A stretch of DNA of 64,000 nt from Candidatus Omnitrophota bacterium (GCA_020429915.1 JAGQKV010000018.1:5770-69769), one strand, 5' to 3'. Positions 3,048 to 26,375 are shown, numbered from the stretch's first letter. Numbers and translations are program-made. Notes: generated by a model from the letters alone, not told the origin.

Positions 3048-6000
3048 ATGAAAAAGATAATCTTTGCACTGGGGCTGGGTGTCGTCCTGGCTGCCGGAAC
3101 CGCTTGGGCGGGATTCGACGGCCCGAACATCCGCGTCGATCATGAACCGACCAGCCTCAACGCCGTCAAAGGAAAGGTGGCGGCCGATAACGCCGGTCAC
3201 ATATACGTGGCGTGGGAGGACGAACGCAGCGGAGCGGGCGTTTACCTGAATTATTCCCACGACAACGGCGGCACCTGGCAGAGCAGCGACACCTTCCTCG
3301 AAATCCCCGGCAGTTCCTATCTGAAAGACCTCAAGATCCTCACCGACCAGTCCGGTCATGTTTATGTCACCTGGATTTACATCCTCAACAGCGCCAAGTA
3401 TGTGGCCTTCGGGTCGTCCTCCGATTACGGCGCGACCTGGTCCACGCAGACGGTCAACGTCGGCGAATCCGGCTGGTGGGTGGATGACGTGGATATGGAC
3501 CATGATGAGTCCGGCCACGTCTGCCTGACGGCGAGCGAGGGGGGATCGTTTCCGCTCAATCTCTACAGCAACTGTTCCGCTGATTACGGCGCGACATGGA
3601 TGGGCACGCACGTCAAGATCAACACCAATAACCCGTCGAGCGGACAGACGCAACGTGATATCAAAGTCTGCATGGATGACGGGGGCCACGTCTACACGGC
3701 CTGGGTCGACGGCCGCGACGGGGTCAGCGGAGGCTGGAAGTATGTCTACTCCAATCATTCCAGTGATTACGGCCAAAGCTGGGCGCAGGAACAGCGCATT
3801 GAACCGCCCTCTTATGCCCAAAACGCGGATAATCCCCAGATTGCCTGCGACAACAACGGCAATGTCCATGTCGCCTGGCATTCTTTTGACGGTCAATTTT
3901 ATCAAAATGAAATTTTCTACAATCACTCCGCGGACTACGGAGTGACATGGCCTAACCGTCAGACGTTCACTACGACAGGCCATTATCCCCGGGTGCAGGC
4001 CGGTGCCGGCGGTAAAGTTTATGTGACCTGGACCGACACATCAAATTCACCATACCTGACGATCCGTTTCCGCCGCTCCACGGACGGGGGAAACTCCTTT
4101 GATTCCGAGGTCCGGATCAACACCAGTCATGACACCGAGCAGGACCACTACGCCTTGAAGGCAGCGGGAAACAAGGTCGGCGTGCTGTGGGAGAATGTGG
4201 AACCGTGGGAAACGATCTACGCCAAATTTTCAGAGGACGCCGGGGTGACGTGGCAGGCAGAGGATATCGATGTCAGCAACGGAGGCTATAACAGCGACCT
4301 CCCTGATCTCGCGATGAGCGGCGGCGGCGAGATGTATGCCGTTTGGCAGGACAACCATACCGCCGGGTACAACATCTATTTCAAAACGGGCACCCCCGAC
4401 GGCCAGGCCGACGTGTCGGTCTTCCAGGACTTCGAACCGGGTAACGGCTCGGATGAGTACGGGTGGGCCTACCCGGGCGCGACGGCGGAACTCTCCACCG
4501 AACAGGTCCACGGCGGCACCCGCGCGTGGAAGGTCAGCTCCGGACAGATGTTTGCCGGGACCGGACTGCAGTCGCAGACGCAACGCTGGGATATGGACTT
4601 CCGTCCGGACATCAACGACCGCCTCACCTTCTGGATCTGGTCGGATCCCGCCACTCCCGCCGACAACACCGTGCTGCTCAAGCTGACGGACACCGGGACT
4701 TTTTCCACCGGTTTTGACGTATGGACGACCGAAAGCGCGGCGTATCAGGAGTGGACGCAGATCGAGGTCCTGTTCAGTCAGCTCCCGGACGGCTTTGATT
4801 TGAATCATGTGAACAAGATCGAGATCTTCAACTACGATGCGGGGACCTATTATTTCGATGACTTCGAGGTCACGGCCAAGGACCGGGTGTATCAGGCCTT
4901 TGAAGACTGCGCCGACGCCGGCGACTGCGGCTGGGCCTGGGGCGGAACCATCGGACTGCAAGGGACCATCGGCATCGAGGAAGAATACGTTTATGAAGGG
5001 GAGACCGCCTGGCGGCTCAACGCGACCGAGAACTGGGCGGGCACCGGGGTCAGGGCCCAGGTCAAGAGTTATGACGCCGTCAATGACGAACAGTCGTACT
5101 GGCATGTGGACCTCAATCCGGAGTTTAATGACCGGCTGACGTTCTGGGTCTACAATCTCGCCGAGAACGGCTTGGCCAACAATCTGGCCGTGCAGTTTTT
5201 CGATCATGACCAGCACTTTGAGGACCCGGTCGTTTACTGGACCACGGAGCGCGCGTTCTACGGGGAGTGGACCAAGCTGACCGTTCCCTTTGATGAACTG
5301 CCGCCGTCGCTCGACCTGACGAACATCAACAAGATCCAGTTCCAGGTGTACTGGAAAGGGGTTTACTACTTCGACGATATCCGCGCCACGCGCGGGGCAC
5401 CGGCGTTCGACAAGGATGTGCTGCCGGACGGCAACATCGCATGGGGCGCCGTACCCGGGGCCTTCGCCTATGAAGTTCAGCGCAGTGACGACGGGGATGA
5501 AGGCTGGGAAACGATCTTCACCGGCGGCGCGACCGGGTTCGGGTACAACGGCCTGAGCCCGAAGTATCTGCGCGTCCGCTGGAGCGAACAAACGTCCTTC
5601 CTTAATCCGAACCGTTACGTCGGCGACTGGCAGAGCCCCGTGCTGTATCAACCGCCGCAACCGGTCATCGATTACGACGCCCTGGCCGAGGGCGACATCG
5701 CCTTCATCATGACGGGCCAGGGGACTCAGTACCAGGTGGAGTCCGCAACCGGCCCCGACGGTCCGTGGTCGCTTCTCTACGACGGTCCGTCGACGGTCCT
5801 CACTGATCAGGCCGAGGATTACGAGTACTACCGCGTGCGCGCCGTCAGAGAAGTCAGCGGACAGATCGTCGATCAGACCGACTGGAGCCCGGCGGTCAGC
5901 TACCGTCCCGGCTTGTACGTCAAAGCGGTCAACCAGCAATTGAAAGAGGACAACGGGCAGGGCGGCACACTGGTCCTGCGCGGCATCAATCTGGGGAACC

Positions 6001-7589: not shown

Positions 7590-8141
7590 GCAATAAGGGA
7601 AATCGCTTTCAAAATACTACGCAATTATGGCAATTTTAGATTGTCGACGAGAACCAAAACATTTTTGATAGATGCAGCGGACGGAAAGCATCCGCACAGA
7701 CATAACTATCTGGTTTTCCGTGAATTATGAGCCCTGGTCATTTTCAATTCATTCTGGTCAGATATATTGTAGCCTGTTACCATAAGAAGAATTCCCCGAT
7801 CGCACCTTCAATAGATATCCTGGTTCGCATTTCGAGTATGCGATAGCTCACAACGTCTTTATTGAATCAGGATAAAAGAATTGATCCCAATTGAGAATGA
7901 TTCGTCCGACCGGACGATTCTGAAATCTTCCCGCCGTCAGATTGCATTTTGGCAATCTGACGGATTACACGAGGGAACTGATGCTAAAACCGTATAGATT
8001 TTTCTCAAAATATTTTGGATAATTCGATATACTCTTCGGCATTAATAGATAGGGGGCCAAACATCGAGTACTTACCTTGTATCTTTCACCGTAATTTCTA
8101 AGCCAACTTGATTATTATTGCCGATTCGTCCTTATTCTCTT

Positions 8142-8221
8142 AGGGTAGCTCCCTGAGAGAACCCCAAAGCAATTAAAAGAGCGGATTTCTGGTGCACCAG
8201 CCGGGGATCCGCTCTTTTTTT
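8142..8221 (+). repeat. ~80-bp structured repeat, copy A (AGGGTAGCTCCCTGAGAG ... GCGGAT-loop-ATCCGC + T-run)
   Basis: Small hairpin AGGG-tagct-CCCT, then 17 nt, then hairpin agagcggat/atccgctct followed by TTTTTTTT (8178-8221). The loop carries the 12-bp palindrome ctggtgcaccag. Confidence 0.55.
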
Positions 8222-8309
8222 GGGGACAGTTATTCGCCATCATCTGTCTGTCCTTATCTTGGATGATTTCTATATATTCAGACAACCGATATACATATGG
8301 AGGCTATCG

Positions 8310-8783
8310 ATGCCGCTAAGCATGAAAGGTCGACTTCGATCATCCGATTGTCATGCGTTTACGCTTATTGAAATAATGCTGGTGCTGATTATTATGGTGA
8401 TCCTGGCCACTATAAGCAGCCGTATGTTGTTCGGAAGTTTGCCGAAGGCAAAAAATCGGACCGCCTATATCGAGATCAGAACTACTCTCAAGAGCGCCCT
8501 GGAGGAATATTATTTGGATACGGGAGACTATCCCACCACGGAGGAAGGACTAGTGGCACTGGTAAGAAAACCGAGCGAATCACAACATTCAGATAAATGG
8601 CTGGGGCCTTATCTTGAAGACCTGCGGCATCCGATAGACCCGTGGGAGAGAAAGTACATGTATCAATATCCCGGTCAACACAATACACATAAATATGATC
8701 TTTATTCCTTGGGAAAGGATGGCGTGGAAAGTGATGACGATATCGTGAATTGGCTTGAGGAAGGTTCCTTACTGGATTCATAA
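8310..8783 (+). CDS. gspG: type II secretion system major pseudopilin GspG (type IV pilin-like N-terminus)
   Basis: Prepilin motif AFTLIEIMLVLIIMVILA. GspG core IDPWERKYMYQYPGQHNTHKYDLYSLGKDGVESDDDIVNW. RBS GGAGG at 8299-8303. Codon usage is markedly AT-richer than neighbouring genes. Confidence 0.85.
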   Translation: MPLSMKGRLRSSDCHAFTLIEIMLVLIIMVILATISSRMLFGSLPKAKNRTAYIEIRTTLKSALEEYYLDTGDYPTTEEGLVALVRKPSESQHSDKWLGPYLEDLRHPIDPWERKYMYQYPGQHNTHKYDLYSLGKDGVESDDDIVNWLEEGSLLDS

Positions 8784-8967: not shown

Positions 8968-11900
8968 GTGAGCAGACGATTTCAAACCAAACGCTCTAAA
9001 TGTTTCGGCAAAGTCAGGAATGATCACGGTTGTCAAATATTGTATCGCCATCTGTTCCGGGTGGGAATGTTGGCGATACTCTTCCTCATGCGCGGTTCCT
9101 GTGCGGCCGCTGATACGGTCATTACCAATATTCAGGAGTTGCAGGACATCAATCTTAATCCGGGAGGATCATACATTCTCGCCAATGATATCAACGCAGC
9201 CGAAACGGCGGATTGGAACAACGGGGAAGGTTTTGATCCCATTATGGATTTTAACGGAACGTTTGACGGGAAGGGTTATACAATCTATGGCTTGACCATT
9301 AACCGCCCCACCACGGACAAGGTCGGTTTATTCGGGGCCATCGTTAATGACGGACATGTCAGTGATGTTTCCCTTTATGGGGCAAATATCTCCGGTAACA
9401 ACAAGGTCGGCACGCTGGCCGGTTATCTCTTTTTGGCCGATGTCGCGGATATCGCGGTCCATCAAAGTCAGGTAAACGGCTCCCAGCGGGTCGGCGGGTT
9501 GGTCGGGGAAAGTTATAACGGGCACGGCATTACAGACGCACTGGTCGATGACGTTGGCGTGTCAGGCATCTCGGAAGTCGGGGGATTGGTGGGACGGACA
9601 TGGGATGGAACCATAAATACCATCCTGCGGGCCGCAGTCACGGCCGATGTCACGGCCATCAGTAATATGGCCGGCGGCATCGCGGGCTACACCAAAAGCA
9701 GCGACATCCTTGAGAGTTTTGCGGAGGGTTCGGTCTCCGGGAATATGGGCGTCGGTGGCATTGCCGGATATACGATCGAAAATGCCGGAATCCATAACTG
9801 TTACGCCGTCAACAGCGTTGCCGGCAACCAATATACGGGGGGAGTAGCGGGACTTTTTTATTCCTACCATGACGGCGTCAGCAACACATACTTTGCGGGA
9901 ACCGTTGACGGCAATAGTCCGGTTGGCGGATTTATCGGAGCCAAGTTTGCCGGGACATCGGTCGCAAACTACTGGGATACGGATCTGAATTCCGGTCTAA
10001 ACAGCGTCGGCAGCGGTAACGGCGCCGGCATTACCGGTAAGACCACGGCCGAATTGTCGCAATTGGCCACCTACCTTGGTTGGGATTTTGAAACGGTATG
10101 GCTGATCAACGGATCATATCCGCGGCTGCAATCACTGAACGATATACCCGGTGGCGGCGAAACCCCTTACTCGCCGGCAACACTTGCCATCCAACCGGGA
10201 ACCAATTTTCTGTCCAATCCGTCCGGAGTCCCGATTCACATTCAGGACGCGCGTTTACGCTTTCGGGCGACGGGCGGTACCAACTCCAATAATGCCGATA
10301 CATTACAAGTATATGATCCGGTACTGGGCGGGTTCCGGCTTTTCTTTTTCGTGAGCAATGCGGAATACATTCCCGAAGAATTTCGGCACAAGTGGTACGA
10401 TACCGGCAACGGTCAAATTGCGGACTATGTTCTAAATCCAGGGACAGGCTTTATCTACACAAACAAGGCGACGGAATCCTTCCCGTGGACGGAGTACCCC
10501 GTGACCGGTTTGCTGCGTTCGCGCACCAGCGTTCATTTGACTCCCAATTACAACCTGATCGCGCACCCTTACGGTGTCGCCGTGGATTTAAATGAGACGC
10601 GGCTGACCGAGATTGCCGAGCCAGGTGATCATGTCTATATCGATGACAACGGACTCCTGCGTTATGACTGGGTTACCGGCTCGGGTGATCCAGAGCTCGA
10701 TAATCATTTTGTGGCGGAAGGCACCTCCGAAGTATCTCCGATTCCGTTGAAGGCGGGGGAGGGTTTTTACTTCTTTAACGCCGCCACCGAAACCAAGATT
10801 TGGCGGGTAATGAATCCCAACTTCCGGCGTATAGCTGTCAGCGGAATCGAACCCGGACCGGACAATTTCCTGTCCAATCCGATGGACAAACCGATTAATA
10901 TTCAGAAAGCAGCCTTTACGGAAAACGCCGTCGGTAATATCGACGCCTACCTGGCCGACAATATTTCCGTTTTCAATTCGGCGAGCGGACTTACGGAATA
11001 CCTCTACTTCATCGGAGAAGATCCGACCGTACCTGAAGAGTACCAGAATAAGTGGTTCGATCCGGTCCAAATGAAACCATCCGAGGTGCTTTTACAACCG
11101 GGAGAGACCTTCACCTACGACAGTAAAGCGGCCGACAGCAGGGTTTGGGTTGAGGGGGCAAGTACATCAACGCCCGTCGCGGTGTATGTGGAAATTGTGA
11201 ACGGTTTCAATAATATATCCAACCCCTTAAGCGTTCCCATTCACCTGCAAAGTGCCGGCATCCAGAATCCGGTCTATTCTTCTAACTGCGCCCTTGCTGA
11301 CCGAGTCGTTGTTGATGGACAGCCGTCATTTTATTGCCATTTAACCGGTAATCCGCTTTCCTGGAGCCTGAATCTGCTATTGGAACCGGGCGCGGGTATA
11401 TCTTATCTTCGTCAGGGGGGAGATACCTGGTGGCAAGAAAAGTTACTGGCCGGAAGCAAGAGTCGCATCGACGGTAACCAGCTGAAGATTCAACGCCGTC
11501 TCTCCAACGGGGCATTGGGTCAGGAAGAGGTGTTTACCATAAAAGGAGTCAATTACTCACCCGTCGACATAAACGAAACGGTATCAAGTTACGAAGAGCA
11601 TCGTACGCACATGACCTTTGACAATGACAAGATAGAATCAGACTTTCAGTCAATGCTGGACATGGGCGTAAACACCATCCGGACCTACGTGGATCCCGGA
11701 CTGGATGTTGAGGCCTGGAAGGACTTCATGGATAAAGCCTATGAATACGGATTGATGGTATTGATCAATGTCCGGACGTCCGACTTCGGTTCGTTTTCCT
11801 TTGCCACCCCGCACGTATGCCCGGCGCCGACCCAGTTTGAATACTCGAAGGTCGTCGGACACTTTAAAGATCATCCCGCACTGTTAGGTTGGATGATCGG

Positions 11901-13200
11901 AAACGAATGGAATATCAATCTGGAAAACAATGTCGTTAAGCCGTTCTATTGCTACAACAGTGTTCATGATGCAGCCGAAGGGGTCGAACGCACGGCAGCA
12001 GGTTACTTATCGTGGACTCAGGGTATTAAGGAACTGGACCCGGATCACATTGTCGCATCATCTTTGGGTTTCATTCAAACATACCAGATGAACGGCGGGT
12101 ACATTGATCTGTTTACTCCGGAGGATGAGGTCAATTTCGGTGAATTCGCGGACATCTTCGCTACCGCTCCGAGTGTGGACCTGTGGGCCTTCAATCTGTA
12201 TCGAGGAAATAGTTTCAACACATTCTTCGCACAATGGAAACGCGCATTTCCCAATAAACCGATCCTCATTACCGAGTTCGGCACTGACGCCTATGACCAT
12301 GTTGCGGGATCTGTCAACCCACAGCAACAGGCCGATACTTACCGGGCGCTATGGAGAGAAATCATCCGCAATGCCTCAGCCATAGATCCGGACAGGCAGG
12401 TTGTCGGCGGCTTTGCCTTCGAATGGAATGACGAGTGGTGGAAGGCAGGCAATCCGGCCAATCACGATGCCAGCGGGTTCCAGTTGAAGGTATGCTATGG
12501 TAATCAGGTCCCCGGCGGGACCGCCCCAACCGTGTGTTTTTACGGTCATCCAGACGATGGGCATTCCAATGAGGAATATTACGGTCTGCTGGATACTGTC
12601 CGCAATCCGCGCGACGCCTACGCCACGATGATGACCGAGTATCAAAGTTCACTCATACCCTCTGAAAACGTATTGCTGGGAGCCCGCAGCCAGACCGGTA
12701 TCGGCGGCCAGGGATCCGAGTTGTCTTATGCTGCCTTCTTTAAGAACGGTGCCCCCCTGGCACTGCGTTATGCAACCGAGGGAGGCACACCGGCGGCACG
12801 CGGGTACAATGTAATGGTCGTCGACGGTAATACCGGCACACCAAAAGACCTGCGCACATTCGACATGTGGCCTGCGGGTGTGGCCGTTCCGCAATGCACC
12901 GAATTCGAAAATTACGCGATGGACCCGGGCAACTTTTCGCCGGGAGACATCGTCCTGGTAGCTGTTGCCGATACAGGGACACCGATCAATGTCCCCTTCC
13001 AGGACTGTCAGGATGCGCTGGTTAAACTGGGAAGCACGGACAACCTGGCGACACTCGGCGGCAATAAACCGTACGTTCTCATCTCTCAAATGAATGCGAC
13101 GGGCAACGCGACAAAATGTATCGAGGAAATTGGGACGCAGTCGAACACAATCATCGACGAGAACTGTACTGTGTCGCTGCCTGAAGTAGTTCTGCCATAA
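8968..13200 (+). CDS. secreted GLUG-repeat protein with three ~170-aa novel repeats and a clan GH-A (TIM-barrel) glycoside hydrolase domain; C-terminal ~180-aa domain of unknown type
   Basis: GTG start (alternative ATG at 9067 just before the hydrophobic signal MLAILFLMRGSCAAA). GLUG-type N-terminus (FDGKGYTIYGLTI...VGLFG, repeated VGGLVG/VGGIAG). Repeats begin NFLSNPSGVPIHIQ, NFLSNPMDKPINIQ and NNISNPLSVPIHLQ. Hydrolase motifs GVNYSP, MIGNEWN and ILITEFGTDAYD. Confidence 0.8.
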   Translation: MSRRFQTKRSKCFGKVRNDHGCQILYRHLFRVGMLAILFLMRGSCAAADTVITNIQELQDINLNPGGSYILANDINAAETADWNNGEGFDPIMDFNGTFDGKGYTIYGLTINRPTTDKVGLFGAIVNDGHVSDVSLYGANISGNNKVGTLAGYLFLADVADIAVHQSQVNGSQRVGGLVGESYNGHGITDALVDDVGVSGISEVGGLVGRTWDGTINTILRAAVTADVTAISNMAGGIAGYTKSSDILESFAEGSVSGNMGVGGIAGYTIENAGIHNCYAVNSVAGNQYTGGVAGLFYSYHDGVSNTYFAGTVDGNSPVGGFIGAKFAGTSVANYWDTDLNSGLNSVGSGNGAGITGKTTAELSQLATYLGWDFETVWLINGSYPRLQSLNDIPGGGETPYSPATLAIQPGTNFLSNPSGVPIHIQDARLRFRATGGTNSNNADTLQVYDPVLGGFRLFFFVSNAEYIPEEFRHKWYDTGNGQIADYVLNPGTGFIYTNKATESFPWTEYPVTGLLRSRTSVHLTPNYNLIAHPYGVAVDLNETRLTEIAEPGDHVYIDDNGLLRYDWVTGSGDPELDNHFVAEGTSEVSPIPLKAGEGFYFFNAATETKIWRVMNPNFRRIAVSGIEPGPDNFLSNPMDKPINIQKAAFTENAVGNIDAYLADNISVFNSASGLTEYLYFIGEDPTVPEEYQNKWFDPVQMKPSEVLLQPGETFTYDSKAADSRVWVEGASTSTPVAVYVEIVNGFNNISNPLSVPIHLQSAGIQNPVYSSNCALADRVVVDGQPSFYCHLTGNPLSWSLNLLLEPGAGISYLRQGGDTWWQEKLLAGSKSRIDGNQLKIQRRLSNGALGQEEVFTIKGVNYSPVDINETVSSYEEHRTHMTFDNDKIESDFQSMLDMGVNTIRTYVDPGLDVEAWKDFMDKAYEYGLMVLINVRTSDFGSFSFATPHVCPAPTQFEYSKVVGHFKDHPALLGWMIGNEWNINLENNVVKPFYCYNSVHDAAEGVERTAAGYLSWTQGIKELDPDHIVASSLGFIQTYQMNGGYIDLFTPEDEVNFGEFADIFATAPSVDLWAFNLYRGNSFNTFFAQWKRAFPNKPILITEFGTDAYDHVAGSVNPQQQADTYRALWREIIRNASAIDPDRQVVGGFAFEWNDEWWKAGNPANHDASGFQLKVCYGNQVPGGTAPTVCFYGHPDDGHSNEEYYGLLDTVRNPRDAYATMMTEYQSSLIPSENVLLGARSQTGIGGQGSELSYAAFFKNGAPLALRYATEGGTPAARGYNVMVVDGNTGTPKDLRTFDMWPAGVAVPQCTEFENYAMDPGNFSPGDIVLVAVADTGTPINVPFQDCQDALVKLGSTDNLATLGGNKPYVLISQMNATGNATKCIEEIGTQSNTIIDENCTVSLPEVVLP

Positions 13201-13206
13201 TAATCC

Positions 13207-13236
13207 GGGGCAGCGCCCTCAATTGGGCGCTGCCCC
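13207..13236 (+). terminator. GC-rich hairpin (12-bp perfect stem, 6-nt loop) 7 nt after the stop codon; weak U-tract
   Basis: ggggcagcgccc-tcaatt-gggcgctgcccc. Confidence 0.5.
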
Positions 13237-13467
13237 ACAATTTGCACTACGGCTCGACAACTTGACTATTGAGATGCCGGAGCATACAATTCAATTAAAA
13301 TTCATGAATAGTAAGTCAGGCAGCTACACGCGCTACATGAACACAAATGCAAGTAATACAACTCACCCGGCCGACAGTTGGCTTTCATGTTAACGCCACG
13401 GGTAAGAATCTTAACGCTATTCGAAATCTACTTCTACAAAACCAAATTAACCGGAGTCATTTAACTC

Positions 13468-13740
13468 ATGAATGAAGAAGCGAAACCTCGCCAATCCGAA
13501 AATAAAGAAAAACTCCCCACCTCCGCCTACATCATGTGCGGCTGGCCGCTGGTGCTGGTTTTTGTGGGCGGGGCGCTCGGCGGGGGATTGGGAGGAGCGG
13601 CCTTCGCGATCAACTTCGAGATCTACAAATCCAGACTCCCGGTTGCGGTCAAGGTCATCCTCAACATCCTCACCGGCCTGTCCGCCGTCATCCTGTGGCT
13701 GGTCATTGGTACGTATATTCACGCGAAATTTAGCGGTTAG
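13468..13740 (+). CDS. small two-TM membrane protein, hypothetical
   Basis: Two hydrophobic helices with a Gly-rich stretch. GGAG lies 11 nt upstream. It sits in an AT-rich intergenic zone, so the call is weak. Confidence 0.35.
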   Translation: MNEEAKPRQSENKEKLPTSAYIMCGWPLVLVFVGGALGGGLGGAAFAINFEIYKSRLPVAVKVILNILTGLSAVILWLVIGTYIHAKFSG

Positions 13741-13844: not shown

Positions 13845-13873
13845 TTGACGCGTACTTCTATATTACATATACT
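13845..13873 (+). promoter_or_regulatory. sigma-70-like promoter candidate for the giant gene (-35 TTGACG, 17-bp spacer, -10 TATACT)
   Basis: Hexamers read directly. GGAGG RBS at 13937-13941 precedes the ATG at 13951. Confidence 0.4.
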
Positions 13874-13950: not shown

Positions 13951-16900
13951 ATGTTCACGCAAATCCATAACAGGTCAGTACTTACAAAATATTATCAACG
14001 CCTGTCGCTGGCCGTGACCGTCCTGTTTACGGTCATGAGCCTGACCGTCCCCGGCACCGCCGCGGCGCAAAATCTGCCGACCACCAATATCGAATTACCC
14101 ATCCCCGGGGTCATGGTCCCGGCATCGAAAGATTACACCCCGGCCCTGATCCGCGGGCTGCGCGTTTATCCCGACAATCCGCTGATGTTCGATTTCGTCA
14201 TCGACAAGGGGGAGGATCTCCTCGACGGCGATGAACTGCAAACCACCTCGCAACGCCTGATCAAGTATTTCCTGGCCAGCCTCACCATCCCCGAAGACAA
14301 GATGTGGGTCAACCTGTCCCCGTATGAAAAGGACCGTATTATTTCTCCGGAACTGGAGGTCACGGCGATGGGCCGCGACCTGTTGGGCATGGACTACATG
14401 CTCAAACAGCTCACGGCGTCGTTGATGTACCCGGAGGACAAACTCGGCCGGGATTTCTGGGACCGCGTCAAGAAGAAAGCCATGCAGGAATACGGCACCA
14501 GCGACATCCCGATGAATGCCTTCAACAAAATCTGGGTGATCCCGGCCGCGGCCACGGTGTTCGAGCTGGACGGAACCGCCTATGTCGTCGAAAGCCGGCT
14601 GAAGGTGATGCTGGAGGAAGATTATTTCGCGCTGGCCAAACACGGCGAGCGGCCCCGCTTCATGTCGGAACGCGACGAGAAGGTCGTCAGCGGGATTACC
14701 TCCGGCGTGGTCCGCGATATCCTCATTCCGGAGATCGAAAAAGAGATCAATCAAGGCCGCCACTTCGCCAAACTCCGGCAAATCTACGACGCGATGGTCC
14801 TGGCGACCTGGTACAAACAGAACCTGCGCGACAGTTTGCTCGGTCAGGTCTATGTTGACCGGGCCCGGATGAAAGGGATCGACGAAATCAACGAGGCGAT
14901 GAAAGACCGCATCTACCAGCAATATCTCGATGCCTTTAAAGTCGGCGTCTACAATTATGTGAGGGAAGACTACGACGCCTCCCTGGACACAATGATCCCA
15001 CGCAAGTTTTTCTCGGGAGGGGCCTCGATGAACGTGTCCGCCGTTTTTCGCGCGCAGACCGCCGTCGCCGAGCTCGACCTTGATCAATTCGTCCGCTTTC
15101 TGACCCTGCTGGATTCGGGCCGCCTGAGCGATCCCAGCCGCCAACAGATCATCGCCCGTATTCAGGCCATGGAGGCCGCGGACCGGGACCGCATTCAGGA
15201 ATTGATCCAACGAAGGCCCATACCGGACGCGGGCATCGCGCGCATTGTGGAGGTCCAGATTTCGCTGCTCGAAAACGCCCCGACCGAACTCCGGGAGTTG
15301 GCCGACGCCGCCGTGCTGGGCGAACAGCCCGAGGCGCAATCCATACAAACCGTTACGCTGGACAACCGCCAATTGCGCCCGGAACAGGTGCTGGCCACGG
15401 TCGCCGAGGTCCGCCGGATGCTCGACGGGGCCGCTCCGGTGATCGATGTCCCGATGTACCCGATGCCGAACCAGAGCCGGCCGAAACTGCTGCTCGCCGC
15501 GATCCGGGAAGGCAAGGGAGACAATCCCATCCTCAACGCGCGCTGGCGCGACTACGAGGCCATCATGAACGCCTTGTGGGACGCAGCCGGAATCTTCGTG
15601 TACAAGGATTTCACCGGATCGGATTTTGAAGGAACTCCGGTCGAACGCAATTTTGCATTAGGCGACGTCGGGGGCAAGATCGCAGCACCCGCGGAAATGG
15701 GCACCGCGTTTTACGTCGACCTGCCGCAGGACCCCGAGGCTGTCGATGATCTGATCAGCCGCATCAATATCGCCCTGGATTCGTTCGAGGCCGAAGCGCG
15801 CGCAGTCTTCGACCAGAATCTGGCGGAACTGATGAGCCCGCAAACGGAGGGACAGGTGGTCGTCCTGTCGAATATCGATTTTGACACCGACGCGCTGGCC
15901 GTGGCACGTTTCCTGACTTCGGGGCGGGCGAATGTACTTGGGCTGATGGGACCGGCCAACCTGCCGTCGCTGGGATTTGTCGACGGCGAACGCCCCAAGG
16001 CGATCGGATTTACGCGCGCTCAGCTGGAGTCCGTGGGGATCAACGTACCCGAATCCGGCGTCATCGATTCGGATCAGCTCGCGCAGGTCGATCTGGAACC
16101 GATCCAGGAATCCATCCGCCGACTGGAGGAGCAAGAGGTCGGCAACATCAATTACACGCGCACGCGCGCCCTGGGCGAAATCATCACGGCGCTGAATCCC
16201 CGCCTCAATGAGCAAAGTCCGCTGACCGTTCAAATGGCGGAAGCCACCCAGCGCTTCATGCAGCCGTCGTACGGCTTTACCGGACCGGAAGATGTCTCAC
16301 CGGTCTTTCCGATCCTCGATATCCGCATCCGTGACGCCGTCGGTGCCGAGCGGACTATTTGGGTCCACCGCCGTTCGCCGGTGCTGACCGATGAGGTGGA
16401 GATCCTGGGGATCGGTCCGCAAACCGAGCGGGTCTGGCGCAGTATCGTCGAGAATGCCGCGGGAGTTATCGTGATCGGCGACACCGCCGGACTGGAAGGC
16501 GTCCTGGGCACAACGCCCGCGGGACAGCCCCGCATTCAAATCGCCTCCCGCGACGTCACCACACTTCAGGAGCTGAGCCGCGACACGTACTGGCGCGACC
16601 TGAGCAACCGTCTGCCCACATCCGGCAGCCTCAATGAGCTGGCCGCCCTGGCGGCCGACCCGGTGGAAATCGCCTCGACGGATGAGCAGTTTCAAATTCT
16701 TGACCCGCGCGGCGACCTCGCTTACGCAGGGGTGAAAGTTTATGTCGTTGATAACCTGTTGCAAGGCGTATTACGTATCGCCGAAGAGCAGGGGGTGCAG
16801 CTGGGACCGGACATGCTGTTGCATCCGGGTATCGTCGGCAAGGCCCTGTACTTTTCCCCGCAGGCTATTGAAATCATCTCCAGCCAGCCGCCTGAATACC

Positions 16901-19473
16901 GGGCGGCGCTGGTGCGTCACCACTTGGCGCACGTCCGGCGCCCCGAGCTGAGCGAGTCACAAATTAACACCATCGCGCCGCTGCCCCGCCTGCGCAATCC
17001 GCAACAGCTGAACCTCGGCGACGGCGTTCGTCCGCCGGCCGCCGTGACCGTGGCGCCGCAGGCTGTCGTCAACCAGGCGATCGAACGCCTCGACGCGCAA
17101 TTCGGTTTGGAAGCGTACGGATCGAATTACCTGTCACCGGAGTCGGAGCGTTACGCCGACATCGACCCGAGCGGTATCCTGCGCAACGGCAGGGTGGATG
17201 TCTTCGTCGTCCCTGATCTGATTAAAACGACCCTGGCCGTGGCCGACGAACTGGGTGTCGAGATGTCGTTGGAAGACCTGATTCAGCCGGCGCGCTCGGG
17301 CAACCGTTTGTACGTCGATCCCCTTGCCCTGGATGTCTTTTCCAGCCAGAGTTACGCCTACCGCCAGGAACTGGCCGCACACCACATGTTGCAGGTCAAT
17401 GTTCGGGAACTGATCCGCGCCGGAGAACTCGAGTACGCCGATGTGCCGCGTATCGTCCCGCTGCCGCAGCTGGAGGAAGCCTCACTGTTCGTCCCCAAGG
17501 CAATCGACCGGCTCCGCGGGTTGGAGGGAGAGTACCTGCCGGACGTTTACCAAGAACTGATGCAGATCGCCCTGCTTGAACTCGACGATGCCGCGCAGAC
17601 GATCCTCCGTCAGCAGCGCATCGATCCGAACAGCGCCACCTACCGGCGCCTGGATCCGGACGGAACCCTGGCCGCCCGCAATGTCACCATCTTTCAACTG
17701 GCGGGGCTCACCGAACGCGTCCAGCAGCTCGCGGCTGAACGGAACCTGGACATCCCGCTGGAGTATCTGCTGCAACCGGCCACGCTGCGGGGTAATCTCT
17801 ATTTTGATCCTTCCGCCGTCGAGATCATCACCGGCCAGGGTCGCGAATTTCGCAGCGCCCTGAGCACACGTCTGAACCGGCGTGCGACGCAACCGGACAG
17901 CAGCGCGGAGGAAATCGATACGCAGGCGCCGGTCCCCAGTCTCGACAGCCCCTCCGTAGCACAGACCGCCGGGGTAACGGCTCCGTCGCTGCCGCGTATC
18001 CGCCAGGGCATCACCGTACCCCAGGAAGAACTGATCAACACCGCCGTCTTCGACATCCGGTCTAGTCTTGAGACAGCGGAGTTTCTCTCCCTGCAACGGG
18101 AGATCGAACCCGGCACCTCCCGTTATGCGCGGCTCGACCCGGAAGGTATCCTTGCGCAGGCCGGTGTCCCTATTTTCGTTCTGCCCGGCCTGATGGACAG
18201 GGTGAACGAACTGGCCTATGCCAACAATCTCGACGCCAGCTTGGAGGTGATTATGCATCCGGGGGTTCTTGACGGTGCATTGTATCTCGATCCGGCCACG
18301 TTGTCCGCCATCCTGGCGCAAAGCCGCGAACACCGGACACAGCTTGCCCGGCATCAGCTCCTGCACCTCCAACAGCCGGACTTAAGTGAAGACCGTGTTG
18401 CCGAGACCGCCCCGTTGCCGCAGATGATCCTGCCGGCGGCAAATGCGCAACGCCGTTCACTACTGGCAGGTCTTCAGGAAAAACTGAGCCGCTACGGTGA
18501 ACAGGGATTGGTGTATCTTAATGAAATGCTTACCCAAAGCCAGTTATTCCCGGTCCAGGGCGAGGGTCAGGACGCAAATCTTGTGCTCATGGCCGGACCT
18601 GAAATCAACATTCCCGAGCGGCGCGCCGAAAGAAGGGAATTCCTGCGTGACGTCATCCTGGGCACCCTGCAGGAAATCAATCCGGTCCTCTCACAATACC
18701 TGGATATTACCGTCGGGACGGTCACGCGCCGGCGTACCGGTGAACGGATGCGCGCGCTGACGCTGAAGTTTAAAAATAGCCCGGCCATGCTGCAAAAACT
18801 AAAGGGGTACTTCTACCGACGTTTCAGTCGGCGGGAAGCGACCGCGGCGAATACTGTCTTGCAGCGTTTGTTCGACGCGGACATGGTGCGCACCATGCGC
18901 CGGCTCGAAAACGACCTGCGCTACGCCATCGGCGCGATGTACTCGCTGCAACAGGTCCTGCCGAGTTTTGCGCGGCGCTTTCCGCTGCGGCCGATCCAGC
19001 AGGGAGTGGCGCTGGCCGGTCCGGAATCCACCATCGTCACGCCGTACATCCTGGTGCAGCCCGAGACCGAGGGACAGTCGTCGCTGGTGGCCTTTGTATC
19101 CGGGCGTCAGATCATCATCCGTTCCGGCCGGATCGCGCGCACCGGAACCGGGCTCCTGCCGTTCCGCCGGCAACAGGATGTCATCATCCTCGATGAAAAT
19201 CCTCAAGTCGACATCCGCCAACCGCTGGGCGCGGACCTCAGACTCAGCGACGCGGCCCTGCTGGCGATCGACCGCGCCCTGGAACCGGATGTGCCGGTCG
19301 GTGGTATCGACCTCGACGCCGGCCTGCTCGACCTGCAGATCAAACGCGACGGCACCGGAATTCCGTTGCCGATCCAGCAGCAACCGATCGAGAATATGAA
19401 CATCGGCGGTTTCACTCCGCTGATCATCAAAATCACACCGCTGACCACCGGCCCGGCGCTGTTGAACCTGTAA
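13951..19473 (+). CDS. giant (1840 aa) secreted protein of unknown function with four tandem ~160-aa repeats (about nt 16690-18430)
   Basis: Signal peptide LAVTVLFTVMSLTVPGTAAAQ. Each repeat starts [RY]xxLDPxG.L..xGV.VFV.P.L and ends ...APLPQ/APLPRL/APVPSL. No catalytic or binding motif recognised. Confidence 0.8.
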   Translation: MFTQIHNRSVLTKYYQRLSLAVTVLFTVMSLTVPGTAAAQNLPTTNIELPIPGVMVPASKDYTPALIRGLRVYPDNPLMFDFVIDKGEDLLDGDELQTTSQRLIKYFLASLTIPEDKMWVNLSPYEKDRIISPELEVTAMGRDLLGMDYMLKQLTASLMYPEDKLGRDFWDRVKKKAMQEYGTSDIPMNAFNKIWVIPAAATVFELDGTAYVVESRLKVMLEEDYFALAKHGERPRFMSERDEKVVSGITSGVVRDILIPEIEKEINQGRHFAKLRQIYDAMVLATWYKQNLRDSLLGQVYVDRARMKGIDEINEAMKDRIYQQYLDAFKVGVYNYVREDYDASLDTMIPRKFFSGGASMNVSAVFRAQTAVAELDLDQFVRFLTLLDSGRLSDPSRQQIIARIQAMEAADRDRIQELIQRRPIPDAGIARIVEVQISLLENAPTELRELADAAVLGEQPEAQSIQTVTLDNRQLRPEQVLATVAEVRRMLDGAAPVIDVPMYPMPNQSRPKLLLAAIREGKGDNPILNARWRDYEAIMNALWDAAGIFVYKDFTGSDFEGTPVERNFALGDVGGKIAAPAEMGTAFYVDLPQDPEAVDDLISRINIALDSFEAEARAVFDQNLAELMSPQTEGQVVVLSNIDFDTDALAVARFLTSGRANVLGLMGPANLPSLGFVDGERPKAIGFTRAQLESVGINVPESGVIDSDQLAQVDLEPIQESIRRLEEQEVGNINYTRTRALGEIITALNPRLNEQSPLTVQMAEATQRFMQPSYGFTGPEDVSPVFPILDIRIRDAVGAERTIWVHRRSPVLTDEVEILGIGPQTERVWRSIVENAAGVIVIGDTAGLEGVLGTTPAGQPRIQIASRDVTTLQELSRDTYWRDLSNRLPTSGSLNELAALAADPVEIASTDEQFQILDPRGDLAYAGVKVYVVDNLLQGVLRIAEEQGVQLGPDMLLHPGIVGKALYFSPQAIEIISSQPPEYRAALVRHHLAHVRRPELSESQINTIAPLPRLRNPQQLNLGDGVRPPAAVTVAPQAVVNQAIERLDAQFGLEAYGSNYLSPESERYADIDPSGILRNGRVDVFVVPDLIKTTLAVADELGVEMSLEDLIQPARSGNRLYVDPLALDVFSSQSYAYRQELAAHHMLQVNVRELIRAGELEYADVPRIVPLPQLEEASLFVPKAIDRLRGLEGEYLPDVYQELMQIALLELDDAAQTILRQQRIDPNSATYRRLDPDGTLAARNVTIFQLAGLTERVQQLAAERNLDIPLEYLLQPATLRGNLYFDPSAVEIITGQGREFRSALSTRLNRRATQPDSSAEEIDTQAPVPSLDSPSVAQTAGVTAPSLPRIRQGITVPQEELINTAVFDIRSSLETAEFLSLQREIEPGTSRYARLDPEGILAQAGVPIFVLPGLMDRVNELAYANNLDASLEVIMHPGVLDGALYLDPATLSAILAQSREHRTQLARHQLLHLQQPDLSEDRVAETAPLPQMILPAANAQRRSLLAGLQEKLSRYGEQGLVYLNEMLTQSQLFPVQGEGQDANLVLMAGPEINIPERRAERREFLRDVILGTLQEINPVLSQYLDITVGTVTRRRTGERMRALTLKFKNSPAMLQKLKGYFYRRFSRREATAANTVLQRLFDADMVRTMRRLENDLRYAIGAMYSLQQVLPSFARRFPLRPIQQGVALAGPESTIVTPYILVQPETEGQSSLVAFVSGRQIIIRSGRIARTGTGLLPFRRQQDVIILDENPQVDIRQPLGADLRLSDAALLAIDRALEPDVPVGGIDLDAGLLDLQIKRDGTGIPLPIQQQPIENMNIGGFTPLIIKITPLTTGPALLNL

Positions 19474-19744
19474 ATAGGTCAACCGATTCTTGACGCGCTC
19501 CGGCATGCCCCTTATACTGACAGGGTAACGCAGATCATCACCGTCGACCAGAACAAATGTCGCGCATCGATCTCTTGCCCGATATGGCTCATAAATCCGC
19601 CATCCCAATAATTCCGGCCGTTGACCGGGGCCCCTCAGGCACCGCTCCCGTCAACAGCCGCCGCCCCGACGATTCACTCCCGAAAAAAACGCTGACGACC
19701 GCCGGTGACGATGTCGCAAAACAGACCGCCGTGGGGAACTTCGT

Positions 19745-21010
19745 ATGAGGCCCGATCGATATTTGAAGATCGGACTTACGGTGGCCGGGATATGGTGCGT
19801 GGCCGTGGCTGCGGGGATGGCCGAGGTCCACACGGGAGAGGCCCGGCGGGTGGCCGGCAACGGTGTGCTGCCGCGCGCACACCTGGAAGCGGTGGTCGCC
19901 CTTGAGGCCCTGGGCACCTATGTCGAATACGGGTCCTACGGGGCCGACCGGACCGTTGTCGAATTCTCCGACCGACGCGGTTATAACGGAGGGGATGAGG
20001 GACTTAAACTCCTTAAAGACCTGCATCATCTCGATACCGTGATCATCGAATCGCAGGATATATCCGACGCGGGACTGGCTGTGTTAAAGGACTTGCCGGA
20101 ACTGACCGCGGTGGACCTCAGCGGTTCGCATTTTACGGGCGAAGGGCTGCGCCATATCGGCACCCTCACCGGCCTGACGAATCTGAATCTCTCCGGGATG
20201 ACCGGGCTCACCGACGACGGACTGCGATCGTTGTCCGGCCTGACCAAACTCTCGGCCCTGAGCATGGAAGACGTGATCCTGAGCGGCGACGGCCTGCAGG
20301 CCCTGGTCGATCTTCCCCTGCAAAAACTTTCGCTCGATTCGGCCCGGTTGGACGACTGGAAAAAATTGGGCGGCCTCAGGAATCTGCGCTCGTTATCCCT
20401 GGCCGATTGCCGGAAATTCAAGGACGACGACGCGGCCGTACTTTCCGGATTGGTCCGGCTGGAGGACCTCAGCCTGTTTCGCACCGGCATCACCGACCGC
20501 GGACTCGGTGTGCTGTCGGGGATGACCCATTTAAGGCACCTCGATCTGCGCTACACGTCGATCACGGATCAAGGCCTGCAACCGCTGGCCGGTTTAACGG
20601 ACCTGGAAACCCTGAAACTGCACGGCACCGACATCACCGGCAGCGGGCTGGCCGCGTTGAGTGACATGGCCCGCCTGAAGGAGCTGGACGTCAGCTACAC
20701 GCCGTTGGAGGACGTCGGCCTGGTGCACATCGGACGGCTGGGCACCCTGACCTGGTTGAACCTGGCGCAAACCAATATCACGGACGCCGGCCTTACGGAA
20801 CTCCGCGGATTGCGCCAGCTGGAAACGCTCTCACTCAGCCACACGGACGTGACCGATCTCGGCGTGGAAAAGCTCAACGCCCTGCCGCAACTGAAAAAGC
20901 TCGGGTTAAAAAACACACCGGTCAGCAACGCCGGCCGCCGCCAGCTTCTCGAGAACCTTCCCTACGTCACCGGCGAATACAACGAACCACTGGTCCGCAA
21001 CACGCGCTGA
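19745..21010 (+). CDS. secreted leucine-rich repeat (RNI-like LRR) protein
   Basis: Signal peptide, then more than 12 repeats of L..L.L..T.ITD.GL..L..L..L. Confidence 0.85.
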   Translation: MRPDRYLKIGLTVAGIWCVAVAAGMAEVHTGEARRVAGNGVLPRAHLEAVVALEALGTYVEYGSYGADRTVVEFSDRRGYNGGDEGLKLLKDLHHLDTVIIESQDISDAGLAVLKDLPELTAVDLSGSHFTGEGLRHIGTLTGLTNLNLSGMTGLTDDGLRSLSGLTKLSALSMEDVILSGDGLQALVDLPLQKLSLDSARLDDWKKLGGLRNLRSLSLADCRKFKDDDAAVLSGLVRLEDLSLFRTGITDRGLGVLSGMTHLRHLDLRYTSITDQGLQPLAGLTDLETLKLHGTDITGSGLAALSDMARLKELDVSYTPLEDVGLVHIGRLGTLTWLNLAQTNITDAGLTELRGLRQLETLSLSHTDVTDLGVEKLNALPQLKKLGLKNTPVSNAGRRQLLENLPYVTGEYNEPLVRNTR

Positions 21011-21901: not shown

Positions 21902-22288
21902 ATGGACACAGACGCCGGAAGAATACGATTGGACAAGTGGCTGTGGGCGGTGCGTATCTGCAAGACGCGCGCGGCGGCCACGGACCTCTGCAAACGCCAG
22001 CGGGTGAGCGTGGACGGACAGAACGCCAAACCCTCGCGCGAGATCCGGGAAGGAAATCTCATTACGGTCAAACGCGACGGTATCGACTGGCAGTACAAGG
22101 TGCTCAAGTGTATCGACAAACGCGTCGGCGCCAAGATCGCCGCGGAATGCCGGGAAGACCTGACGCCGAAAGAGGACCTCAAGCGGCTGAAGGAGGTCAA
22201 ATCCTCCTGGACCCCGCGCCGCCCCAAAGGGGAAGGCCGCCCCACCAAGAAAGACCGCCGGGATCTCGACAAACTGCACGGGCGGTGA
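21902..22288 (+). CDS. hslR: ribosome-associated heat shock protein Hsp15 (S4 RNA-binding domain)
   Basis: RLDKWLWAVRICKTRAAATDLCKRQRVSVDGQNAKPSREIREGNLI is a classic Hsp15/S4 motif. Basic C-terminal tail. Confidence 0.85.
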   Translation: MDTDAGRIRLDKWLWAVRICKTRAAATDLCKRQRVSVDGQNAKPSREIREGNLITVKRDGIDWQYKVLKCIDKRVGAKIAAECREDLTPKEDLKRLKEVKSSWTPRRPKGEGRPTKKDRRDLDKLHGR

Positions 22289-22353
22289 TGTGGGCCCACG
22301 CTACGGACGACCTCCTATTGACGCCGCCGCCAATATTCATTATAGTAAGGGCA

Positions 22354-23064
22354 ATGTGCCGGAATATGTTAAGCCTTACGCGCCCGCGGATAGTGAGTGC
22401 CTTGCTGGCCGCCGCTTTATTGACGGGTGCGTCCGGCTGCGGTGGCTCCGGGGGACCGGTCGGGACCAAGTACGGAGACGGCGCGGTCGCCGGATCCGGA
22501 GTGCTGACCACCCGGCGCATCGACGTTCACTTCTTTGAAGGAGTGAAGATCGATCATGATTTTGACATCAATATCGCCCAGGGGAGTTCCCCGCGCGTCA
22601 TTATTACCGCCGACGATAACATTACCCGCTTGCTGAAGCCGCGAATCAACGACAATATCCTGGTGCCGGAATTTGAACAGGGTTTTCGCACCCGTAAACC
22701 CGTCCGTCTGCGGATCGAGACGCCCGACCTGGAGCGTATCGATCATAGCGGCCGGGGAACCGTGATCCTGGACAATCTCAGTCTGGCAAACCTGGCGCTT
22801 AAAGTTTCCGGCGACGGCGATGTCTCCGGATTGGGCCGGGTCGACAAGCTCTGGATCGAGGCCGGCGGCGACGGGAATCTCCAGCTGGAAGACGTCACCG
22901 CCAAGCAGGTCGACGTCCTGCTTACTGGCAAAGGCCAGGTGACGGTCATGGCCACGCAAAAACTGGAGGCCACCAACATCGGCCGCGGCGAAATTATTTA
23001 TGCGGGCAACCCGCCGGAGACGGAAATCGACAATTCCGGCAAAGGCACTATCAGGAAGAAATAG
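22354..23064 (+). CDS. lipoprotein with DUF2807/GIN-type (adhesin head-like beta-helix) domain
   Basis: Lipobox LLTGASGC. Repetitive G-x-G beta-strand pattern. Paralogous to 25716-26375. Alternative start at 22366. Confidence 0.7.
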   Translation: MCRNMLSLTRPRIVSALLAAALLTGASGCGGSGGPVGTKYGDGAVAGSGVLTTRRIDVHFFEGVKIDHDFDINIAQGSSPRVIITADDNITRLLKPRINDNILVPEFEQGFRTRKPVRLRIETPDLERIDHSGRGTVILDNLSLANLALKVSGDGDVSGLGRVDKLWIEAGGDGNLQLEDVTAKQVDVLLTGKGQVTVMATQKLEATNIGRGEIIYAGNPPETEIDNSGKGTIRKK

Positions 23065-25341: not shown

Positions 25342-25719
25342 ATGCCTGAGAAATACCTACGGCCCAGTTTCATCGCCAAGGAAGACGGCGACTTTATCTC
25401 GATCCAGGTCAGCGGCGACATCAACCAGTACACGCTGCCTGAATCGCGCAAACTCCTCGACGAAATCGTGCGCCGGCACCGCATCGGCAAACGCGACAAT
25501 CTGCGTATTTTGGTCGACTACGAGCTGGTCGGCGATGTCGACTCAGCCACGGTCGCCAATATCATCGATCGCCTCGAAAGCAACAGCGGGCGGAATCACC
25601 GGGTGGCGTTTATCAATATGCCGGAGGAATTCCAGCATTTGATTGAGATTTACAAATTGAAGGAGATGATTCTCGTCTTCGACTCCCGGGAGGAGGCCAT
25701 GCGGGAACTGATGAAATGA
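25342..25719 (+). CDS. STAS-domain (anti-sigma antagonist-like) protein
   Basis: Size and pattern of SpoIIAA-like fold (hydrophobic core, ILVDYELVGDVDSATVANIIDRLE). Low-specificity call. Confidence 0.55.
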   Translation: MPEKYLRPSFIAKEDGDFISIQVSGDINQYTLPESRKLLDEIVRRHRIGKRDNLRILVDYELVGDVDSATVANIIDRLESNSGRNHRVAFINMPEEFQHLIEIYKLKEMILVFDSREEAMRELMK

Positions 25720-26375
25720 ACGGAGGACCCCGGAAAAGCGGACTGAGTCTGCTCATCGTAGCTGTCCTGCTCGTCTCCGGCTGCGAACCCGGTGTCGTTA
25801 AGGGTAACGGGCGCTCGCGAACAGAGTCACGCGAGCTGACCGCCTTCGGTACGGCCGTGATTCACGGTGATTTCGCGGTCACCGCCCAACAGGGACTGCC
25901 GCCGAAGGCCGAGTTGACGGCCGATTCCAATCTGCTGCAGCACATCCGCACCACCGTCGCGGGCAGCGCGCTTCAGCTGGAACCCGACATGGAATTACGC
26001 AGCCGTCGTCCCGGAGAGATACGCGTGGTCAGCCCGACGCTGGAGGCGGTAACGCATGTGGGTCACGGTCCAGTGACCTTGAAACTCACCGACGCCGATG
26101 ATTTTCTCGTGGCGGTGAAGAACACCGGAACGGTCTCGGGCACCGGTACCGTGAACAAACTGACCATACACAGCGAAGGATCGGGTCATGTGGATCTGCG
26201 GGAGCTCACCGCGCGCGTTGCCTCGGTCATCGTGACGGGTGATGCGGACGTCACATTGACGGCCACCGCGACGGCAGTGATTGAACATCACGGCAAAGGC
26301 ACGGTAACGGTTTTCGGATCACCGAAAGATGTGGATAACAAGAACCTCGGCGAGGGCCGGGTCCTCATCAAATGA
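25716..26375 (+). CDS. lipoprotein with DUF2807/GIN-type domain (paralog of 22354-23064)
   Basis: Lipobox LLVSGCEP. Repeated (G-x-G)-V/I strands. Confidence 0.7.
   Translation: MNGGPRKSGLSLLIVAVLLVSGCEPGVVKGNGRSRTESRELTAFGTAVIHGDFAVTAQQGLPPKAELTADSNLLQHIRTTVAGSALQLEPDMELRSRRPGEIRVVSPTLEAVTHVGHGPVTLKLTDADDFLVAVKNTGTVSGTGTVNKLTIHSEGSGHVDLRELTARVASVIVTGDADVTLTATATAVIEHHGKGTVTVFGSPKDVDNKNLGEGRVLIK

Follow-up and report, generated by a model that had tools for sequence, protein, structure and literature searches.

A very probably exported Omnitrophota protein of 1840 residues with family-wide constant ends and four degenerate zincin-like repeats

What is a bacterial protein of 1840 residues that resembles no family in the curated domain libraries, and does it act together with the leucine-rich repeat (LRR) protein encoded just downstream? 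The question is raised by a 64,000-nucleotide stretch of DNA from a Candidatus Omnitrophota bacterium (GCA_020429915.1 JAGQKV010000018.1:5770-69769), called the window here, on which all positions are counted. An earlier note on this DNA had described the product of its largest gene as a secreted orphan with four tandem repeats and no recognizable domain, which might join the LRR protein in a complex, either secreted or at the cell surface. The gene is genuine, and no open reading frame (ORF) in the window is longer, the runners-up encoding 1513 and 1410 amino acids. Its product, referred to below as the giant, is likely a Sec-exported, cysteine-free member of a huge, modular and uncurated protein family, equipped with four pseudo-peptidase binding modules and independent of the LRR protein. 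The parts of the giant that define the family are a constant N-terminal domain (N-cap) and a constant C-terminal element (C-tail):

13951..19473, plus strand: ORF of the giant, 1840 residues, no cysteine; member of the probably exported N-cap/C-tail family
14068..15120, plus strand: N-cap domain, residues 40 to ~390 (LPxPG ... WVNLSPYE ... RKxFSGG), the family's constant N-terminal domain
19276..19470, plus strand: C-tail, residues 1776-1840 (GGIDLDAGLLDLQIKRDGTGIPLP...GGFTPLIIKITPLTTGPALLNL; GGIDLN...PVIINITP), the family's constant C-terminal element

The giant matches no Pfam or NCBIfam family at E ≤ 1, including C-terminal sorting domains and RTX repeats, and no PDB sequence at E ≤ 10. The absence of a recognizable domain therefore holds for curated hidden Markov model (HMM) libraries, but not beyond them, since the two ends define a huge family and the repeats are zincin-like. 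Searched against 5.8 billion proteins, the giant gave more than 3,000 matches, the best 119 of which were mapped onto it. Residues ~1-380 are common to all 119 (45-58% identity) and residues ~1780-1840 to 118 of them (45-74% identity, with one at 34%); the middle of the protein is absent from almost all. An exhaustive phmmer search with the N-cap (residues 1-400) against 1.84 billion cluster representatives yielded 7,964 clusters at 50% identity, 6,138 of which score E ≤ 1e-30. In each of the 150 clusters listed the match is N-terminal, in proteins of 420-5,312 residues, and the length range of the family is ~1,000-5,300 residues when fragments are set aside. All organism names among the matches are Candidatus Omnitrophica/Omnitrophota, the other named source being a hydrothermal vent metagenome, and the family is probably specific to Omnitrophota. 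The first ~390 and last ~60 residues thus place the giant in a family of thousands, and it is not an orphan. The suggestion that it represents a new domain family survives to the extent that its parts fall in domain families uncurated so far. Within the window the giant is the only member; elsewhere, paralogues can stand in tandem (three consecutive genes in locus L005, two in L006), and several per contig are possible.

Of the columns in the N-cap alignment, 59 are invariant, and many of these hold charged or polar residues, which suggests a strongly constrained shared function, either binding of a common partner or catalysis. An AF2 model of residues 1-420, built from a 42-sequence alignment, is of moderate quality (pLDDT 70, pTM 0.71) and consists of the leader helix followed by an α/β domain with two β-hairpins and about ten helices. 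Foldseek gave no significant fold match for this model in the PDB (best E = 0.12). A role of the N-cap as a pore-former was considered and rejected, as the top matches, to the V-ATPase subunit a N-domain and to ClyA-type pore-forming toxins, are noise (probability ≤ 0.07, TM-score ~0.1). At the other end, the C-tail HMM finds one copy per protein in 183 of the 211 family proteins collected, at a median of 28 residues from the C terminus. Its consensus of ~58 residues reads GGIDLNPALLDLQIKRDGNGVPLP...GFxPVIINITPVxNLPLLLG, with GGIDLNPALLDLQIKRDGNGVPLPLNQQPIENMNIEGFVPVIINITPVTNLPLLLG as the full form. Most members carry a short acidic extension after the C-tail, which the giant lacks.

Between these constant ends the cargo of the paralogues is highly varied, as seen in precomputed Pfam matches. 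It includes enzymes of sugar metabolism, namely phosphoglucomutase (PGM), UDP-glucose pyrophosphorylase (UDPGP), PGK, PGI, TIM, FBPase, starch synthase and glycogen phosphorylase, together with response-regulator receivers, HEAT repeats, radical SAM domains, an M48 peptidase and an ABC1 kinase; about half of the listed family proteins have no Pfam match whatever. That the cargo consists of pseudo-enzymes in general is ruled out for PGM, which retains its catalytic Ser loop and metal loop, and for one radical-SAM protein (P0101), which keeps CxxxCxxC in an otherwise cysteine-poor sequence. A canonical stand-alone PGM gene lies ~1 kb upstream of family member P0003 at locus L004, so where other family members carry fused cargo enzymes, these need not stand in for the housekeeping copy.

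The cargo of the giant itself includes four tandem repeats:

16663..17127, plus strand: repeat 1, residues 905-1059, zincin-like, with HHLAH (nt 16918-16932) at the HExxH position
17128..17616, plus strand: repeat 2, residues 1060-1222, with HHMLQ (nt 17380-17394); catalytic Glu and second His gone
17617..18099, plus strand: repeat 3, residues 1223-1383, with RLNRR (nt 17869-17883); entire motif gone
18100..18585, plus strand: repeat 4, residues 1384-1545, with HQLLH (nt 18352-18366); both His present, Glu replaced by Gln

Their LDPxGxL motifs start at residues 917, 1071, 1234 and 1395, a spacing of 154, 163 and 161 residues (462-489 nt), in agreement with the four diverged repeats of ~480-nt period that had been placed at nt ~16690-18430. 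Each has a ~110-residue core that closes, as had also been described, in an APLP(Q)-like motif and is followed by a poorly conserved linker of ~50 residues. In blastp comparisons of all pairs the four units are 26-36% identical (E = 5e-12 to 9e-28), and the flanking regions of the giant hold no extra copies of the module. Tandem Repeats Finder detected no repeat in the DNA, so the duplications must be ancient.

Apart from the repeats, the earlier note saw no catalytic, binding or structural signature in the giant, a view overtaken by the small zincin-like fold of the module and by the HExxH motif, which is degenerate in the giant and intact in the copies of other proteins. The module occurs also in the orthologue P0002, twice in P0003, in P0006 (a paralogue with UDPGP cargo) and at metagenome locus L003, the one locus found when a three-copy alignment was used to scan sequence collections. 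At the HExxH column the two copies of P0003 and those of P0006 and L003 read HELAH, HELAH, HEIAH and HELAH, and the copies of the orthologue read HHLVH, HYLLQ and HQLLH. None of the giant's four copies shows the HExxH by which minimal zincins are recognized; the position of the catalytic Glu is taken by His, His, Leu and Gln in repeats 1-4. Repeats 1 and 4 retain both zinc-binding histidines together with the downstream Glu, which is conserved in these repeats and in the intact copies (PELSE, PDLSE, PEAEE) and opens the next helix. Repeat 4 and the matching copy of the orthologue both carry HQLLH, so the degenerate state appears to be old and maintained. Exchange of the catalytic Glu for Gln is the standard means of inactivating zincins, and histidine ligands with a downstream Glu but no catalytic Glu are the classic make-up of a substrate-binding, inactive peptidase. 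With HHLAH, HHMLQ, RLNRR and HQLLH in place of HExxH, the four modules of the giant are probably catalytically dead binding modules.

The L003 copy sits in a secreted protein that exceeds 2,398 residues in length (L003 2359-9552; OBEQ010737677.1), has no N-cap and carries one HExxH-intact module near its N terminus; thus, the module is not confined to the N-cap family. An origin from mobile elements was considered for both elements and set aside, as the N-cap found no match among phage records and the repeat module none among plasmid records.

In the gluzincin layout, HExxH lies on a long helix that follows a β-sheet, and a Glu opens the next helix. In the AF2 model of repeat 4 (pLDDT 87.8), three short strands and a backing helix are accompanied by a long helix (positions 76-91) and a further helix, with the motif at positions 85-89 of the long helix and the conserved Glu 97 at the start of the following one. 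Foldseek ranks minigluzincins first among PDB structures, selecase 4qhi having a probability of 0.93 with E = 0.08 and TM-scores of 0.43/0.50, and the top six matches include proabylysin 4jiu, projannalysin 4jix and selecase 4qhf. In BFVD the top match of the same model is a phage metalloprotease (E = 0.009, probability 0.99), and the next include IrrE-like, SprT-like and PolyVal metallopeptidase proteins. Minigluzincins are related to the SprT and WLM folds (PMC4559962). The agreement of the two structure libraries with the motif and with where it lies in the model makes it quite likely, in our view, that the repeat module is a minimal zincin.

Two further regions of the giant flank the repeats:

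15121..16662, plus strand: lineage-specific region, residues 391-904, no assigned fold; the sub-block of residues 606-887 (nt 15766-16611) occurs also in paralogue P0031
18586..19275, plus strand: pre-tail region, residues 1546-1775, no assigned fold; the last ~170 residues are common to few family members

The first is 65% identical to the orthologue P0002 and 64% to P0121, and is otherwise confined to orthologues save for residues 606-887, which match P0031 at 28% identity (E = 4e-27). The pre-tail region is matched by P0004, P0015, P0049 and P0032. The orthologue P0002 is 65% identical to the giant overall. Its gene call (1203 residues; L001 10001-14287) was ended early by a frameshift or stop on a contig of 3x coverage, and homology to the giant, including the third, HQLLH-type repeat, runs on in another frame to the contig end. 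Scans of the genome and metagenome collections with residues 401-1770 found no further orthologues. Searches with residues 381-900 or 901-1780 alone missed the giant itself and, in the case of residues 381-900, also P0002 and P0031, which reflects a failure of the word-based candidate step, not absence.

Evidence for export comes from the leader and from the amino-acid composition:

13951..14067, plus strand: Sec-type signal peptide, residues 1-39, with predicted cleavage at AAA↓QN, assigned by rules

Basic residues (R8, K13 and R17) precede a hydrophobic segment at residues 18-36, the only one in the protein, which leads into the cleavage site (...R17-LSLAVTVLFTVMSLTV-PGTAAA↓QN). The signal peptide attributed to the giant in the earlier note is therefore upheld. 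The same layout is seen in the N-termini inspected, those of about 45 of 183 aligned family members, which have basic residues, a hydrophobic stretch of ~18 residues and then 'PP..(S/A)YAQ' or 'AAAQ', with the leader ending ~10 residues ahead of the conserved LPxPG. In addition, cysteine is scarce throughout the family. It is missing from all 1840 positions of the giant and from 73 of 211 family proteins altogether, and makes up 0.084% of residues pooled over those 211 proteins. Other ORFs in the window mostly contain 0.4-2%. At five other loci (L001, L004-L007), family genes have 4 cysteines in 12,133 residues versus 103 in 10,902 for their neighbors. Family values of 0.03-0.08% thus compare with ~0.9% in neighboring genes, a depletion of ~10-30-fold, and catalytic cysteines are retained where needed, as in the CxxxCxxC of P0101. 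Strong cysteine depletion is characteristic of exported proteins. The product is very probably exported, to judge from its sequence, and the mature giant would be extracytoplasmic.

Several points weigh against the conclusion that the giant is an exported, modular protein with pseudo-peptidase modules. About 740 of its 1840 residues (391-904 and 1546-1775) are uncharacterized. Intact HExxH has been seen in just four copies of the module from three proteins. Cleavage of the signal peptide follows from rules, not from a trained predictor, and the cargo enzymes of many paralogues depend on ATP, UTP or S-adenosylmethionine (SAM) and have kept their catalytic motifs, which is hard to square with a simple extracellular location. 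As regards the fold, repeat 4 has no structural match at E ≤ 1e-3 and its TM-scores are just 0.37-0.50. Module profiles gave nothing significant against PDB sequences, Pfam or the M48 domain of paralogue P0040, and the hhalign alignment with this last domain spans only 14 residues around the motif.

The structural and profile results would also fit a module unrelated to metallopeptidases, its fold matches being noise and its HExxH a coincidence; the repeats would then be spacers or adhesin repeats of a new fold. We regard this as unlikely, because two independent structure libraries rank small HExxH peptidases at the top, and because HExxH occupies the same column in all four copies outside the orthologue pair, where it lies on a long helix with a Glu next, as in gluzincins.

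The cytoplasmic character of the cargo bears on a different alternative, in which the N-terminal helix of the giant stays uncleaved and tethers it to the inner membrane with its body in the cytoplasm, the family being a membrane-anchored scaffold. The cargo of the paralogues consists mainly of cytoplasmic-type enzymes and receiver domains with intact catalytic motifs, and a 2026 preprint proposes such a topology for the transmembrane-only (TM-only) class of long Omnitrophota proteins, whose metabolic and regulatory domains it reads as cytoplasmic-facing. Nevertheless, the basic residues lie before the hydrophobic segment, which by the positive-inside rule means that the body lies outside the cytoplasm, and a conserved AxA↓Q site comes after that segment. 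The giant has a single hydrophobic segment, and the cysteine depletion, typical of exported proteins, would go unexplained in cytoplasmic ones. A cytoplasmic-facing tether is accordingly improbable in our judgment, and export of the giant remains the reading that we prefer.

The second part of the question concerns the LRR gene and the sites around it:

13845..13873, plus strand: sigma-70-like promoter candidate TTGACGCG-N15-TATACT (TTGACG-17-TATACT), 78 nt 5' of the giant's ATG; a consensus match only
19490..19518, plus strand: second TTGACGCG-N15-TATACT promoter-like site, between the giant and LRR genes
19557..19748, plus strand: ORF of 63 residues, no Pfam match, with its stop and the LRR start codon overlapping (ATGA); a called gene on public contig(s)
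19745..21010, plus strand: LRR protein, 421 residues, with N-terminal leader, 24-residue repeats and Pfam LRR matches; neighbor of the giant

The downstream LRR protein was correctly described as secreted, in that it has an N-terminal hydrophobic leader, and as an LRR protein (Pfam LRR_8 7e-25, LRR_4 4e-23, LRR_6 4e-20). The label RNI-type is only approximate, the repeats being 24 residues long. Its gene starts 271 bp past the stop codon of the giant on the same strand. This proximity, with a leader on both products, is what favors an orphan secreted giant in complex with the LRR protein. The promoter candidate that had been proposed for the giant was found as well, and its pattern occurs at just two sites in the window (0 in 100 shuffles), one before each of the two genes. 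The two genes may share a type of promoter or be co-regulated, and no terminator-like site was found between them. Co-regulation of the giant and the LRR gene is thus possible.

A complex of the two proteins is nonetheless improbable. Besides the fact that the giant is no orphan, there is no LRR gene beside the paralogues P0003, P0004, P0005 and P0031 and no LRR homologue at loci L001-L006, and the neighborhoods of the paralogues are varied and largely made up of housekeeping genes. The overlap between the 63-residue ORF and the LRR gene suggests that they are translationally coupled; with this upstream ORF and a promoter-like site of its own, the LRR gene is provided with separate start signals, and the array continues from it into housekeeping genes. 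Most simply, the LRR gene is an independent exported neighbor with its own promoter.

As for conservation of the adjacency, the single orthologue contig (P0002, L001) ends within the giant's gene, before the LRR position, and the LRR protein, scanned against a genome collection, gave no orthologue. Within a collection of public assemblies, 58 blocks list the identical 421-residue protein, and its contigs reach 0.2-1 Mb, long enough to count the family genome-wide. All 24 contigs that were read with the identical protein have the same neighborhood. They appear to be one organism assembled repeatedly, and consequently provide no evolutionary test of the adjacency.

Upstream of the giant lie genes for a CHAT-domain peptidase (577 residues), a 1513-residue GH5 cellulase-domain protein and a T2SS-G pseudopilin (1161-8783), followed by a 1410-residue GLUG-like/glycoside-hydrolase protein. 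An exported-protein neighborhood of this kind fits export of the giant. The CHAT, GH5 and pseudopilin genes form a co-directional cluster with the giant, in which the large members are exported or probably exported. The exported protein of 1410 residues (8968-13200) has a GLUG/M26-N-like N-terminal region, a GH72/GH2-like TIM barrel and an ILEI-like C-terminal domain, and three internal repeats of ~150 residues (FLSNP..PI.IQ) were spotted in it by eye. The GC content is 49-52% over 8-14 kb and 56-63% on both sides; the low-GC stretch may be acquired DNA. A 90-residue ORF with two hydrophobic segments (13468-13740), probably a small membrane protein, sits between a strong hairpin (13206-13237) past the glycoside-hydrolase gene and the promoter-like site of the giant. 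Downstream of the LRR gene, the array of housekeeping-like genes includes two DUF2807 ('auto-transporter adhesin head GIN domain') proteins (22288-23064 and 25716-26375).

As to whether the modules could still be active peptidases with a non-canonical general base, such as a His in HHLAH, this is very improbable even though repeats 1 and 4 retain both histidine ligands and the downstream Glu, given the textbook inactivation of zincins by Glu-to-Gln, the additional loss of zinc ligands in repeats 2 and 3, and an HQLLH whose conservation in a 65%-identical orthologue fits a stable non-catalytic role.

On the reading that we prefer, of an exported modular protein with dead peptidase modules, every family member would have the same layout, with a cleavable signal peptide followed by the ~350-residue N-cap, a variable cargo and the ~58-residue C-tail. 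The N-cap and C-tail would be shared handles by which the proteins are sorted, anchored or displayed in the cell envelope, or delivered beyond it, and the middle part of each paralogue would determine its role. In the giant this cargo would be non-enzymatic, composed of the two regions of unassigned fold and the four ancient tandem modules of ~110 residues with a zincin fold. Located at the surface or secreted, the giant would use its pseudo-peptidase modules to bind peptide or protein ligands without cleaving them, for example envelope components of its own cell, or of a host or prey cell.

A wider idea is that the N-cap and C-tail are the handles of an undescribed, phylum-wide Omnitrophota system of export, display or delivery with thousands of cargoes. 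We put it forward tentatively, as a possibility with the odds against it. Export signals on cargo that depends on ATP, UTP or SAM would be understandable if that cargo acted within another cell or a special compartment. If so, phosphoglucomutase, UDP-glucose pyrophosphorylase, PGK, radical-SAM proteins and pseudo-enzymes would end up on the cell coat or inside the cells of a host or prey, and the family would be the main effector or coat repertoire of host-dependent nanobacteria.

The giant's own interest is moderate, and that of the family it reveals is higher. Defining the N-cap and C-tail as families would allow thousands of entries that are now 'hypothetical' or named after their cargo to be re-annotated. 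It would also make the question of how Omnitrophota interact with other cells testable, through the destinations of these proteins and the recognition of their two ends. The dead-zincin repeats, for their part, neatly illustrate how a peptidase fold can become what is probably a binding module.

The Omnitrophota, bacteria that are uncultured and in most cases ultra-small, are believed to rely on host or prey cells (PMC10066038). The very long proteins that they encode are still puzzling: West-Roberts et al. (2023 preprint) described proteins of tens of thousands of residues, the 2026 complete-genome preprint analyzed the domains of those of at least 10,000 residues, and the two debate whether the enzyme domains face outward or inward. 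Seymour et al. (2023) discussed giant ORFs as possible adhesins (PMC10066038). The giant described here points to a far more numerous class of mid-sized proteins, with ~8,000 clusters, set apart by canonical export signals, extreme cysteine depletion and normally cytoplasmic cargo. No description of the N-cap or C-tail was found in these three works or by a text search for the motifs, although an earlier description is possible.

How, then, does this protein compare with known systems? As modelled, the repeat module resembles the minimal zincins of the minigluzincin, SprT, WLM and IrrE type in its ~110 residues, which form a three-stranded sheet backed by one helix and followed by a long one, in carrying HExxH on that long helix (in the homologous copies), and in the conserved Glu that opens the next helix. 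These proteins are its top structural matches in the PDB and BFVD, below formal significance and with no detectable sequence similarity. Minigluzincins are free-standing proteins of ~105-110 residues, whereas the giant bears four tandem copies inside a large exported protein, all of which have lost the catalytic Glu.

At the level of the family, the substrates of type IX secretion offer a parallel, in that a Sec signal at one end is matched by a conserved element, in single copy, at the other, the cargo between them varies strongly, and there are many paralogues per genome. The family differs from them in its ~58-residue tail, which matches no Pfam or NCBIfam sorting domain (E ≤ 1), and in the extra constant N-terminal domain of 350 residues. 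Type IX secretion is a system of Bacteroidota, and no machinery was identified here. MARTX and polymorphic toxins likewise combine constant N- and C-terminal regions with central domains that vary in the manner of cassettes. Unlike these toxins, the family has no RTX repeats, processing protease or toxin domains, uses a Sec rather than a type I signal, and carries mostly housekeeping-type enzymes.

The giant Omnitrophota proteins ('Archaeovorins' and multi-enzyme giants) come from the same phylum, are likewise predicted to be in the envelope or outside the cell, and share with the paralogues an unusual cargo of PGM, starch synthase, receiver and radical SAM domains. Most of them have many predicted transmembrane segments, whereas the protein described here has one N-terminal hydrophobic segment.

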